A stretch of 64,000 bases of DNA from the IMG/VR virus record IMGVR_UViG_2721755676_000001, one strand, 5' to 3'. Below the pieces are notes generated by a model. The model did no database searches and was not told the DNA's origin. It saw nothing but the letters and a program-made list of their open reading frames with translations. Shown one piece after another: positions 3,024 through 6,173 of this stretch (position 1 is the first letter of the stretch; each line of letters opens with the position of its first letter). Made by a program: the position numbers and the translations under genes. Source of the DNA: a virus (lineage: Duplodnaviria > Heunggongvirae > Uroviricota > Caudoviricetes).

Positions 3024-3037
3024 AAAGGAGTGATGGT

Positions 3038-3245
3038 TTGCTGAAGGCAGTCTCAGAGTTATTAGGTGGGTCACCAGGCCTGAAAGGACGTCAAATTGCC
3101 AAGGAGCTGGGGCTGGTCAGCTGTCAGCAGCCGACTCACCGGTATAAACGTGGTGGTCATGAACATGTTGCTATCCCTAACTACCTTGAACGGCAGTTCG
3201 CCGTGACCGAGCCAAATCAGGTGTGGTGCGGTGATATTACTTATA
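3038..3245 (+). CDS. IS3-family transposase OrfB, exon 1 (N-terminally truncated)
   Basis: Translation ...[19 protein letters not shown] then runs into intron; track ORF 3038..3310 continues into intron sequence. Confidence 0.6.
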
Positions 3246-3901
3246 GTGTGCCCGGAGTTCAGGGCGGGCATGGATGCTTAAATGAACCGCGAGTCTGTCT
3301 GGAATATTGAACCGGTAACTCACGATGAGAACCCCAACAATCCCACCGGGTGTGACGGTGGAGAACCTGAGCGGCAGTGACCTGCGGCATGCCCGCAGGG
3401 TGATGTAACCCGCTGACAACGGGGATTGAGGCGAGATCACTAAGCCGAGATGATCCTCAAGGTTAAGTACTGAAAGGCTGAAGAACATGAACCCGTTAAT
3501 CCGCCTCTGTGGGTTGAAAACGTCACCACGGCCTACGTGATCTGACAGGCCGTGCAGGAGGAACTGGCAGTGATACGTAAGCACTGCCGGTCGAAGGTGT
3601 TTTGACATGTATGCGAAACACCGGGGCAGCAGCGTCTATCACGCTTGCGTTGCTGACTTCTGCCAACTTGCGGCAAGCAAGGATAAAGAGTGCGACGGGC
3701 AGCCTCCTCAGTATGCCTGAGTCCAGGCAGGTAAACTGGGGAAGGTCAGCGACGGATGTTAAGGGGGCATGGCTCCGATGACGCGCTGGCTGGCGGAGCT
3801 TCCGTAGTAGTCCGCGATGGGGAAAGCCCATTACATGGCGAAGGGAAGCAGTTTGAATGTGTTTGCGACGTGAATTAACTGACCTAACGAGGTGAAGACC
3901 T

Positions 3902-5425
3902 TTGATAATCAGCGAAATGCAACGCAAGCTTGCCACATGGGCAGCCACCGTTCCGTCCCTACGGATTCAACGGCTGCTGCGTCTGATAACACAACCAGAA
4001 TGGCTGGCTGAAGCGGCGCGGATCACGCTTTCATCAAAGGGGGCGCATACCCCCGGCGTTGATGGCGTGAACAAAACAATGCTACAGGCCAGACTGGCTG
4101 TTGAGCTGCAAATCCTCAGGGATGAATTACTCTCAGGCCACTACCAGCCCTTGCCCGCCAGACGGGTTTACATCCCTAAAAGCAACGGCAAACTGCGACC
4201 ACTGGGTATCCCCGCGTTGCGGGATCGTATTGTTCAGCGGGCCATGCTGATGGCGATGGAGCCGATATGGGAGAGTGATTTTCATACGCTCTCATATGGC
4301 TTCCGGCCTGAGCGCAGTGTCCACCACGCGATCCGCACGGTGAAATTACAGCTCACAGACTGCGGTGAAACCCGGGGACGCTGGGTGATTGAAGGCGACC
4401 TGTCCAGTTACTTCGACACCGTACATCATCGACTGCTGATGAAGGTTGTACGCCGCAGGATCAGTGACGCACGTTTCATGACTCTGCTGTGGAAAACCAT
4501 CAAGGCGGGACATATCGATGTCGGTCTCTTTCGGGCGGCCAGTGAAGGTGTGCCACAGGGCGGTGTTATATCGCCGCTATTATCGAACATCATGCTGAAT
4601 GAGTTCGATCAATACCTGCATGAGCGCTACCTGAGCGGGAAAGCCAGAAAAGATCGGTGGTACTGGAATAACAGTATCCAACGGGGCCGAAGTACGGCGG
4701 TCAGAGAAAACTGGCAGTGGAAACCCGCGGTGGCGTACTGCCGCTATGCCGATGATTTTGTCCTCATCGTCAAAGGCACCAAAGCACAGGCGGAAGCCAT
4801 CAGGGAGGAGTGTCGGGGTGTGCTCGAAGGCAGTCTGAAACTCAGGCTGAACATGGATAAGACTAAAATCACCCATGTTAATGACGGCTTTATCTTTCTG
4901 GGGCACAGGATCATTCGCAAACGCAGTCGTTATGGCGAGATGCGAGTGGTCTCAACGATCCCGCAGGAGAAAGCCAGAAACTTCGCCGCATCGCTGACAG
5001 CACTGTTATCAGGCAACTACAGTGAAAGCAAAGTCGATATGGCTGAACAACTCAACCGAAAACTGAAAGGCTGGGCCATGTTCTATAAGTTCGTTGATTT
5101 TAAGGCCAAAGTCTTCAGTTATATCGACCGTGTCGTGTTCTGGAAGCTGGCTCACTGGCTGGCCCGCAAATACCGTACAGGTATCGCTTCCCTGATGAGG
5201 TGGTGGTGTAAATCACCGAAACCGGGTCAGAGCAAAACGTGGGTTTTATTTGGTAAAACCAATCACGGCAAGCTCAGCGGCGAAATACTGTACCGGTTGG
5301 TGGGGCAAGGCAAGAAGCTGTTCCGCTGGCGGCTACCCGAAGGTAATCCCTATCTGAGGACGGAGACCAGAAACACGTATACATCGCGCTTTACAGAAGT
5401 GGCAATGGCGTTCGCCAGCATTTAA
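3902..5425 (+). CDS. Group II intron-encoded reverse transcriptase/maturase
   Basis: 507-aa ORF with RT block incl. YADD (AYCRYADDFVLIV) and C-terminal maturase-like region; alternative start at 3917 (MQRKLATW). Confidence 0.9.
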   Translation: MIISEMQRKLATWAATVPSLRIQRLLRLITQPEWLAEAARITLSSKGAHTPGVDGVNKTMLQARLAVELQILRDELLSGHYQPLPARRVYIPKSNGKLRPLGIPALRDRIVQRAMLMAMEPIWESDFHTLSYGFRPERSVHHAIRTVKLQLTDCGETRGRWVIEGDLSSYFDTVHHRLLMKVVRRRISDARFMTLLWKTIKAGHIDVGLFRAASEGVPQGGVISPLLSNIMLNEFDQYLHERYLSGKARKDRWYWNNSIQRGRSTAVRENWQWKPAVAYCRYADDFVLIVKGTKAQAEAIREECRGVLEGSLKLRLNMDKTKITHVNDGFIFLGHRIIRKRSRYGEMRVVSTIPQEKARNFAASLTALLSGNYSESKVDMAEQLNRKLKGWAMFYKFVDFKAKVFSYIDRVVFWKLAHWLARKYRTGIASLMRWWCKSPKPGQSKTWVLFGKTNHGKLSGEILYRLVGQGKKLFRWRLPEGNPYLRTETRNTYTSRFTEVAMAFASI

Positions 5426-5430
5426 ATGGA

Positions 5431-5464
5431 GAGCCGGATGCGCTGAAAGGTGCACGTCCGGTTC
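5431..5464 (+). ncRNA. Candidate group II intron domain V
   Basis: GAGCCGGATGCGCTGAAAGGTGCACGTCCGGTTC resembles the domain V consensus hairpin with GAAA-type loop, directly after the RT ORF stop. Confidence 0.55.
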
Positions 5465-5515
5465 GGGGAGGAGAGGCAGGGAAATAGTCCGACTACGCCC
5501 TGCCTCTTACTCTAC

Positions 5516-5994
5516 TCTGGACGGGTAAGCGCTGGGCGTACCTCGCCGTTGTTCTCGACCTGTTCGCAAGAAAACCAGTGGGCTGGGCCATGTCGTTCTC
5601 GCCGGACAGCAGGCTCACCATGAAATCGCTGGAAATGGCATGGGAAACCCGTGGTAAGCCCGGCGGGGTGATGTTCCACAGCGATCAGGGCAGTCATTAT
5701 ACGAGCAGGCAGTTCCGGCAGTTATTGTGGCGATACCAGATCAGGCAGAGTATGAGCCGGCGTGGAAACTGCTGGGATAACAGCCCAATGGAACGCTTCT
5801 TCAGGAGTCTGAAGAACGAATGGGTGCCGGCGACGGGCTATGTAAGCTTCAGCGATGCAGCTCACGCCATAACGGACTATATCGTTGGATATTACAGCGC
5901 ACTAAGACCGCACGAATATAACGGTGGATTACCCCCAAATGAATCGGAAAATCGATACTGGAAAAACTCTAACTCGGTGGCCAGTTTTTGTTGA
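5516..5994 (+). CDS. IS3-family transposase OrfB, exon 2 (DDE integrase core, C-terminal part)
   Basis: [26 protein letters not shown]...[10 protein letters not shown]...[22 protein letters not shown]; track ORF 5578..5994 is its in-frame ATG-initiated part. Confidence 0.75.
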
Positions 5995-6173
5995 CACTTC
6001 ATCTACACTCGCGGCATTGGAAGCAAAGATATGGTCGTCTGGCACCTGATGCACATTGATAAGGCTATCAACCACACGCTGGAGAAGTTCTTTCCACCAG
6101 CCTGAACACAATGATTGTGCGCCTTATAGCGCCCATTAATATAGATAAGTACTTACCAACAAGGAGAAAACAC

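Follow-up and report, generated by a model that had tools for sequence, protein, structure and literature searches.

When the transposase gene of an insertion sequence (IS) is interrupted by a group II intron and has itself lost its beginning next to a restriction gene, one has to ask which elements are involved, whether they are still intact and how the arrangement came about. Such a locus lies near one end of the 64,000-nt stretch of viral DNA analyzed here (IMG/VR record IMGVR_UViG_2721755676_000001, Caudoviricetes; hereafter the window), the source of which is an SSU5-like phage-plasmid of Escherichia. A first-pass annotation, made from the letters of the window, had placed nested mobile elements at 3030-6010, with a group II intron inside an IS3-family orfB that was truncated next to the type I restriction gene hsdR. 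We consider it very probable, from sequence comparisons, that window 3104-6001 is a non-transposable remnant of IS911 in which the group II intron E.c.I4 occupies its normal homing site as a complete and apparently functional copy.

The intron, its target site and its IS911 host

The intron is a discrete insertion of 2,270 nt, and the observation is a real one, because the E. coli plasmid pM160133_p3 (L003) and its sister plasmids hold a precise empty site. In L003, window positions 1-3245 and 5516-8886 directly abut, with 99.9% and 99.7% identity, giving the arrangement hsdS-DUF4268-hsdR-IS fragment-DUF7238′ without the intron. Joining the exons at 3245/5516 gave a continuous transposase reading, in which an Ile codon is split between its A and its TC. 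The rve (DDE integrase) domain, which the intron splits in the genomic DNA, was uninterrupted on the joined exons (3.5e-32), and the contiguous match was to the transposase of IS911, a member of the IS3 family (IS3 group). The precise splitting of orfB that the first-pass annotation had described was thereby confirmed.

The intron starts with GTGTGCCCGG at 3246 and ends with CTCTAC at 5515; GTGTG at 3246-3250 and AC at 5514-5515 are the conserved 5′ GUGYG and 3′ AY of group II introns. Within 3246-5515, the Rfam group II model RF00029 matched at 5429-5515 on the plus strand with 64.9 bits (gathering score 40, E = 1.7e-10) over its full length (1-77). This was the sole Rfam match in the whole window at the gathering threshold. 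Domain VI contains an unpaired UA, with the A at 5509, 7 nt from the 3′ end. No Rfam family for domains I-IV matched even at E ≤ 1, and a CRISPR-DR8 match at E = 0.91 was taken as chance. The 5′ 671 nt of the intron had a more stable fold than shuffled sequences (z = -3.6), a property that is not specific to group II introns.

The intron-encoded protein (IEP) scored 340 bits against TIGR04416, "group II intron reverse transcriptase (RT)/maturase", for which the cut-off is 300. Pfam scans found RVT_1 at residues 91-337 (1.3e-34) and GIIM at 361-426 (7.3e-11), counted from the TTG at 3902; five has to be subtracted for numbering from the ATG at 3917, in which the YADD motif stands at residue 277. 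An HNH endonuclease was not found in the IEP: the Pfam and NCBIfam scans gave no such family, and the 76 residues after domain X contain no CxxC pairs. The GTGTG/AC ends, the RT/maturase open reading frame (ORF) and the domain V-like hairpin noticed at first pass were all borne out, by the boundaries in L003, by TIGR04416 and by RF00029, respectively.

As judged by its sequence, the intron is E.c.I4, an element already described from Escherichia and Shigella (also as S.f.I1), and it stands at a known target in a dead IS911 stub. It is the same element in length (2,270 nt, reported as 2,271) and in its insertion point in an IS3-family orfB. The copy E.c.I4-2b of E24377A (NC_009801 4848623-4850893, as given in the supplement of PMC3522654) begins at the same 5′ boundary, GTGTGCCCGG after GTGACCTATA, and shows 11 differences in 2,270 nt. 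The intron sequence was matched in 2,668 of 5,426 complete E. coli genomes and in 2,716 E. coli records at ≥99%, and its identity to the copies that were read was 99.5-99.9%. It differs from other E.c.I4 copies by private substitutions at 3737 (in the ribozyme), 3951 (D12V) and 4446 (A177V). The latter two change the IEP and were seen in none of the other 14 full-length or near-full-length copies read; three further copies stop at intron nt 159, upstream of the IEP ORF. Another difference is the unusual end of the 5′ exon, where the last 10 nt are not those of a typical IS911 host.

In the 17 intron 5′ junctions read, the insertion lay after GAY-NTN-ACN-TAY-R and before T. The target codons, D(I/V/F)TY, encode the first catalytic Asp of IS3-family transposases. 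Beyond the window's own site, the same insertion point was found in five host-site variants, namely canonical IS911 and four other host IS types. This position agrees with the published target of E.c.I4, which inserts at specific positions in the IS3-like transposases of IS629, IS911, ISEc16 and ISEc31 (Leclercq and Cordaux 2012, PMC3522654). We also predicted the exon-binding sites (EBS) of the intron and the matching intron-binding sites (IBS) of the 5′ exon. Within the first 700 nt of the intron, no 6-mer other than UGUGGG, the predicted EBS1, pairs with positions -6 to -1 of the window site, the IS911 site and the site of a copy in a different host IS (L002). Pairing with the predicted EBS1 was full in five of six host-site variants, with one G-G mismatch in the sixth (L046), and the predicted EBS2 formed five or six of six pairs across the host sites and four of six in L046. 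It seems that the G/U-rich predicted EBS tolerate the synonymous transitions that separate the host IS types.

Against a complete IS911 (L004), the 5′ exon showed 96.6% identity over 145 nt (3101-3245, including a microhomology discussed below), equivalent to IS911 nt 618-762, and the 3′ exon showed 97.4%. The homology was limited to IS911 nt 618-1250, and its onset falls within window 3101-3117. IS911 nt 1-617 are missing, and with them the left inverted repeat, orfA, the frameshift region and the 5′ part of orfB; what remains of orfB begins at about codon 100 of the 308-codon translated IS911 stretch that ends with OrfB. The lack of orfA and of the start of orfB had been pointed out at first pass. 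Because of these losses, the remnant is dead and non-transposable. It is still recognizable as IS911: the DDE/rve domain is restored by joining the exons, and the right inverted repeat, as read from the sequence, matches the left end of IS911. It differs from IS911 in its in-frame fusion to part of an unrelated gene and in having a right repeat that is one base short. The missing base is at 5995-5996, where the window has GTTGACACTTCA and canonical IS911 has GTTGACCACTTCA; the same deletion was present in L003 and not in three intron-occupied plasmids (L001, L048 and L049).

Table 1. Features of the hsdR-IS911-intron locus, in window coordinates.
Feature	Position	Strand	Remarks
hsdR, type I restriction enzyme R subunit	6..3023	+	1005 aa, full length; Pfam HSDR_N, ResIII, SWI2_SNF2, T1R_D3-like
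Remnant of gene downstream in hsd cassette	3024..3103	+	Ribosome-binding site AAAGGAG, TTG start at 3038, first ~22-26 codons; HATPase_c-like "ATP-binding protein"
Microhomology GAGCTGGGGCTGG	3104..3116	+	13 nt common to ATPase gene and IS911 orfB; junction within
IS911 orfB fragment, 5′ exon	3117..3245	+	IS911 nt ~634-762; ends GGTGATATTACTTATA
Predicted IBS2 / IBS1	3234-3239 / 3240-3245	+	Last 12 nt of 5′ exon
Group II intron E.c.I4, complete, 2,270 nt	3246..5515	+	Empty site in L003 is precise; many E. coli genomes have copies at 99.9% identity
Predicted EBS2 (UGAUGU)	3401..3406	+	Pairs with exon -12..-7 (Watson-Crick or G-U); complementarity only
Predicted EBS1 (UGUGGG)	3508..3513	+	Pairs with exon -6..-1; complementarity only
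RT/maturase (ltrA-like), 502 aa, intact	3917..5425 (ATG 3917)	+	TIGR04416, RVT_1, GIIM
Domains V/VI	5431..5515	+	Domain V 5431-5464; domain VI bulged branch-point A 5509; 3′ end CTAC; RF00029 alignment
IS911 orfB 3′ exon and right end	5516..6001	+	IS911 nt 763-~1250; orfB stop 5992-5994; right inverted repeat ends GTTGACACTTCA at 6001
DUF7238 gene 3′ remnant (SSU5_064 homologue)	6002..6105	+	104-nt tail, cut by IS911 insertion; PGAP pseudogene in L003 and L007

The junction behind hsdR and the phage-plasmid setting

The IS had been thought to start immediately after the hsdR stop codon. This did not hold: window 3024-3103 is the remnant of an ATPase gene, and the IS911 homology begins at 3101-3117, not at 3030. 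At the other side the element ends at 6001. The nesting of an intron in an IS, as first proposed for 3030-6010, was therefore correct, but both outer ends had to be moved.

Window 3024-3103 was collinear with positions 3600-3697 of Vibrio gigantis plasmid p1 (L012, NZ_AP025494.1). The homologue there, a fifth gene of the hsd cassette, is intact at 361 aa and annotated by PGAP as "ATP-binding protein" with a weak HATPase_c match; its start corresponds to window 3038-3116. Positions 1-6594 of this marine Vibrio plasmid hold the DUF4268-hsdR cassette as well, with a nucleotide identity of about 96%. The intact genes downstream in the Vibrio cassette are those for the ATP-binding protein, a helix-turn-helix (HTH) protein, a metal-dependent hydrolase and a SAVED-domain protein. 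The comparison suggests that the cassette moved recently between Vibrio and Escherichia and that its original gene set was longer.

Sensitive blastn searches of the E. coli genomes recovered bases 3018-3104 from 59 genomes, with 40 copies on chromosomes and 19 on plasmids. Each copy lay behind this hsdR and none in an IS, and the IS911 homology did not reach upstream of 3101. The peptide encoded at 3024-3100 is loosely similar to the N-terminal region of IS3-family OrfB, and a second IS3-family fragment was considered there. It was ruled out by the occurrence of the 87 nt only beside this hsdR (word-11 blastn, 59 genomes) and by their being the start of the intact V. gigantis gene.

A three-way comparison of the window, L012 and the IS911 of L004 assigned the sequence 5′ of a 13-mer, GAGCTGGGGCTGG, to the ATPase gene and the sequence 3′ of it to IS911. 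Beyond the same 13-mer, the chromosome L009 runs on with the ATPase gene where the window switches to IS911. As the window matches the ATPase gene upstream of the 13-mer and IS911 downstream of it, the truncated IS and the ATPase gene are fused at a microhomology of 13 nt. On this comparison, IS911 has lost nt 1-~620 and the ATPase gene the greater part of its length, and an in-frame chimeric ORF is left. That ORF, 3038-3310, comprises the start of the ATPase gene (~22-26 codons), in-frame IS911 orfB and a read-through into the intron. It is a chimera and not a gene, although gene callers could report it as a protein of 90 aa. The first-pass annotation had suggested a later deletion or rearrangement at the hsdR boundary. 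The rearrangement itself is upheld by the microhomology fusion; it may have come before or after the first insertion of the intron.

The hsdR gene is intact. The last 199 aa of HsdR were collinear to the final residue with homologues from unrelated contexts, at 66% identity in Acetobacter, 48% in Moraxella and 99% in V. gigantis. The inspection of the hsdR 3′ end suggested at first pass was thus favorable, as were the other two suggested checks, the Rfam match and the alignment of the joined exons. The Vibrio hsdR has its stop at the same position, with the intact ATPase gene next to it downstream. Against NCBIfam TIGR00348, HsdR scored 211.9, under the subfamily cut-off of 284.55. In the operon of the sister plasmids, the DUF4268 gene stands between hsdS and hsdR, an atypical layout for a type I restriction-modification (R-M) cassette. 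With hsdR intact, the cassette may well be functional.

Over window 20000-44000, identity was 99.3% with L003, 96-98% with phages CMS-2020a, Cyrano and PhiR41_1, and about 79% with Salmonella phage SSU5. In SSU5-like plasmids the hsdM-hsdS-DUF4268-hsdR-ATPase′-IS911′ block takes the place of about 1.1 kb of SSU5-type backbone, namely the 3′ part of an SPFH/lipoprotein gene, a DUF2591 gene and most of the DUF7238 gene. The SSU5 backbone homology restarts at window 6001, inside SSU5_064, the DUF7238 gene. In SSU5 this gene is intact and spans the insertion point, at SSU5 position 57606.

How the intron came to the fused junction

The fused junction is not private to the window, and its occupancy by the intron has changed more than once. 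Among the 59 E. coli genomes with the hsdR-ATPase′ sequence, 10 had both the fusion and the intron, on six chromosomes and four plasmids. At least 12 complete E. coli plasmids had the fusion and both flanks around an empty site, and the empty site was present in about 20 plasmids of PLSDB, including plasmids of E. fergusonii and Enterobacter. Chromosomal islands with the cassette took two forms. In L009 there is no fusion: after 131 nt of the ATPase gene comes the left end of an IS911::IS30 composite. In L010, L013 and L014, the same fused junction as in the window is followed by intron nt 1-159 and then by a K-12-type IS911A::IS30 composite; it is the left end of this composite that cuts the intron after nt 159, inside the predicted EBS2. 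Since the same junction occurs in plasmids and in chromosomal islands, with and without the intron, the fusion arose once and was passed between replicons.

The exons beside the intron proved to be mosaic. Between the window and L003, its nearest empty-site relative, there were 15 differences in 6,616 nt, and 12 of them fell in the 631 nt of the IS911 exons (binomial P = 2e-10), as against one in the 3,023 nt of hsdR and two in 2,800 nt downstream. Nine of the 12 (5667, 5763 and 5824-5856) are K-12-type IS911A alleles, as in the copies L044 and L045. Both of these copies carry the intron haplotype of the window save for its three private changes (3737, 3951 and 4446). The occupied plasmids at the orthologous site have other intron haplotypes (L001; L048, which equals L049; and L050). 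L048, L049 and L050 also carry other exon mosaics, with exon 2 of L050 replaced by another IS3 member, and the exons of L001 match the empty-site allele. On the chromosome of E. coli O55:H7 DEC5E (L043, 460-3948), E.c.I4 lies between an IS629-type 5′ exon and an IS911-type 3′ exon; this is a recombinant of two IS::intron copies, which makes a genome rearrangement likely. The simplest reading of the mosaic markers beside the intron is repeated ectopic homologous recombination among IS3::E.c.I4 copies.

These data suggest the following course of events. A type I R-M cassette consisting of hsdM-hsdS-DUF4268-hsdR and the ATPase gene would once have adjoined an IS911. A deletion between the 13-nt direct microhomologies may then have taken most of the ATPase gene together with IS911 nt 1-~620, that is, the left inverted repeat, orfA and the 5′ part of orfB. 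The resulting hsd-IS911′ block would have come to lie in an SSU5-like phage-plasmid, with the right end of IS911 interrupting the DUF7238 gene. By what is established for group II introns, the intron would be co-transcribed with the sense strand of hsd and IS, and we found no terminator-like site between hsdR and the intron; it would then splice itself out with the help of the RT/maturase. The resulting ribonucleoprotein (RNP) would find DNA targets through pairing of EBS1 and EBS2 with the 12 nt upstream of the insertion point, and because the IEP has no endonuclease domain, nascent strands at replication forks would prime the cDNA. The copy in the window most likely arrived at the already truncated remnant, or was overwritten in it, by ectopic homologous recombination with an IS911-like::E.c.I4 copy. 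Recombination of this kind in the host genome would drag in flanking exon markers, and a clean retrohoming event is less likely.

It is possible, if doubtful, that an E.c.I4 RNP reverse-spliced into the empty truncated IS911 and that the 12 exon differences came from separate gene conversion between IS copies or from an unsampled ancestral allele. Retrohoming is the documented route by which E.c.I4 spreads (PMC3522654), the intact target pairs with both of the predicted EBS, and many sister plasmids are empty. L001 even looks as a retrohomed copy should: its exons differ from the empty L003 only at 3117 and in one base of the right inverted repeat. Retrohoming, however, moves no exon sequence, and in the window the changes are clustered in the very exons that flank the intron. 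Moreover, the nine exon-2 markers match IS911A-type copies that hold the same intron haplotype.

We think it rather improbable that, in line with the later deletion of the first-pass annotation, the intron was in IS911 before the deletion fused IS911 to the hsd cassette, the empty sister plasmids then being secondary precise losses. Such an order would fit the presence of a 5′ part of the intron at all of the six chromosomal fused junctions (nt 1-159 in the three that were read), and a 3332A haplotype is common to L001-type plasmids and the chromosomal copies. Among plasmids, however, empty junctions outnumber occupied ones, with at least 12 against four in RefSeq complete genomes and about 20 empty in PLSDB. 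The empty sites bear no sign of conversion by canonical IS911, and precise intron loss is rare. In addition, the backbone of the window is nearest to an empty-site plasmid, and its intron haplotype is unlike that at the chromosomal junctions.

The end of exon 1 raised a question of its own. The last 10 nt (3236-3245) read ATTACTTATA, whereas the other IS911 copies read, with or without the intron, all end in GTGACCTATA; the window is unlike all of them at 3236, 3238 and 3241. By this change a G-G mismatch with the predicted EBS2 becomes a G-U pair. ATTACTTATA is the exon end of the different host IS in L002. An L002-type DNA donor could have left the tract as a short heteroduplex, or the tract could stem from cDNA synthesis that read through into the 5′ exon of the donor. 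An L002-type donor had at one point been deduced from the intron haplotype, but this was withdrawn, as the same haplotype occurs in IS911A-type, IS629-type and other hosts.

Copying of the tract from RNA would mean that cDNA synthesis on an unspliced or partly spliced L002-type transcript ran past the 5′ end of the intron, i.e. RT-mediated co-conversion of the 5′ exon by an endonuclease-less bacterial intron. Such co-conversion has been described for yeast mitochondrial introns. We know of no case in bacterial retrohoming, and retrohoming in bacteria reportedly proceeded without flanking co-conversion in studies of Ll.LtrB. The tract does equal the L002-type exon end, and it reaches from the splice site to the point at which the two IS types cease to be similar; the L002-type intron has the window haplotype; and a DNA donor with an IS911 body and a ATTACTTATA end was not found in the collections searched. 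Nevertheless, we hold co-conversion from RNA to be very improbable, as it is a single instance, as exon 2 is altered too, which co-conversion does not predict, and as a short heteroduplex from a DNA donor into an occupied site yields the same pattern.

Several observations weigh against the view that a functional E.c.I4 entered an already truncated IS911 by ectopic recombination. The IEP carries its two private amino-acid changes, D12V and A177V. EBS1 and EBS2 were assigned by complementarity only, there being no Rfam model of domains I-IV that matches this class. The fusion could have arisen in an already occupied IS911, because six out of six chromosomal fused junctions carry at least intron nt 1-155, which was the extent of the query, and stop at nt 159 in the three that were read. 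The nine exon-2 markers do not form one tract and are interleaved with L003-type markers. An IS911-like allele ending in ATTACTTATA was found in none of the E. coli complete genomes, PLSDB, the GTDB representatives and IMG/VR, and a metagenome search for such an allele returned only unrelated or ~68%-identical IS3 members. Finally, no donor allele accounts for all of the flanking changes.

Related loci and significance

The closest parallel is the CP4-6 prophage of E. coli K-12, in which the supplement of Leclercq and Cordaux lists E.c.I4-tr1, a fragment of 1764 bp (PMC3522654). Window 3246-5009 (1,764 nt) aligned to K-12 272191-273954, in the ykfC region, with 10 mismatches, which is the extent of E.c.I4-tr1. 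The order there is IS911A::IS30A - IS911A-1 - E.c.I4-tr1 (ykfC, eyeA) - IS5A, i.e. the same intron at the same IS911 position in a graveyard of mobile elements. In K-12, however, the intron is cut at nt 1764 by IS5 and the IS911 allele is about 87% identical in exon 1, whereas the intron of the window is complete and lies on a phage-plasmid. Chromosomal islands with this hsd cassette hold the same IS911A::IS30 composite as CP4-6. Window 3635-3709 corresponds to the K-12 small RNA EyeA (b4690, NC_000913.3 272580-272654); EyeA is intron-derived sequence, as it lies inside the truncated E.c.I4 fragment of CP4-6.

E.c.I4 belongs to bacterial class A, which is among the classes without an endonuclease domain (Toro and Martinez-Abarca 2013, PMC3552965; PMC4244168). 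Through its identity with E.c.I4, the intron of the window would be placed in class A as well, and its endonuclease-less IEP fits. A similar way of life is known from RmInt1, a class D intron of Sinorhizobium that also lacks an endonuclease domain and homes into the transposase gene of ISRm2011-2. Both are endonuclease-less bacterial group II introns for which an IS transposase gene serves as a safe, multi-copy and horizontally mobile homing site. RmInt1 differs in intron class, host IS family and host bacterium, and the sequence relationship of the two goes no further than general features of group II introns.

As an example of a group II intron with a safe homing site in transposase genes of the IS3 family, the locus is a textbook one. 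Its value lies mainly in annotation: two "IS3 family transposase" pseudogene pieces and an ltrA gene are one nested structure. To this the locus adds the true left junction, an intact hsdR, the phage-plasmid context and a polymorphic, recombining site. Even a dead IS stub on a phage-plasmid may still be a landing pad and possibly a source copy, and by serving as such it would allow the intron to travel between strains with the temperate phage-plasmid. Ectopic recombination has been proposed as a cost that limits intron proliferation (Leclercq and Cordaux, PMC3522654), and the mosaic exon markers in the sister plasmids make up a small set of natural data on this process between IS::intron repeats of 3 kb.

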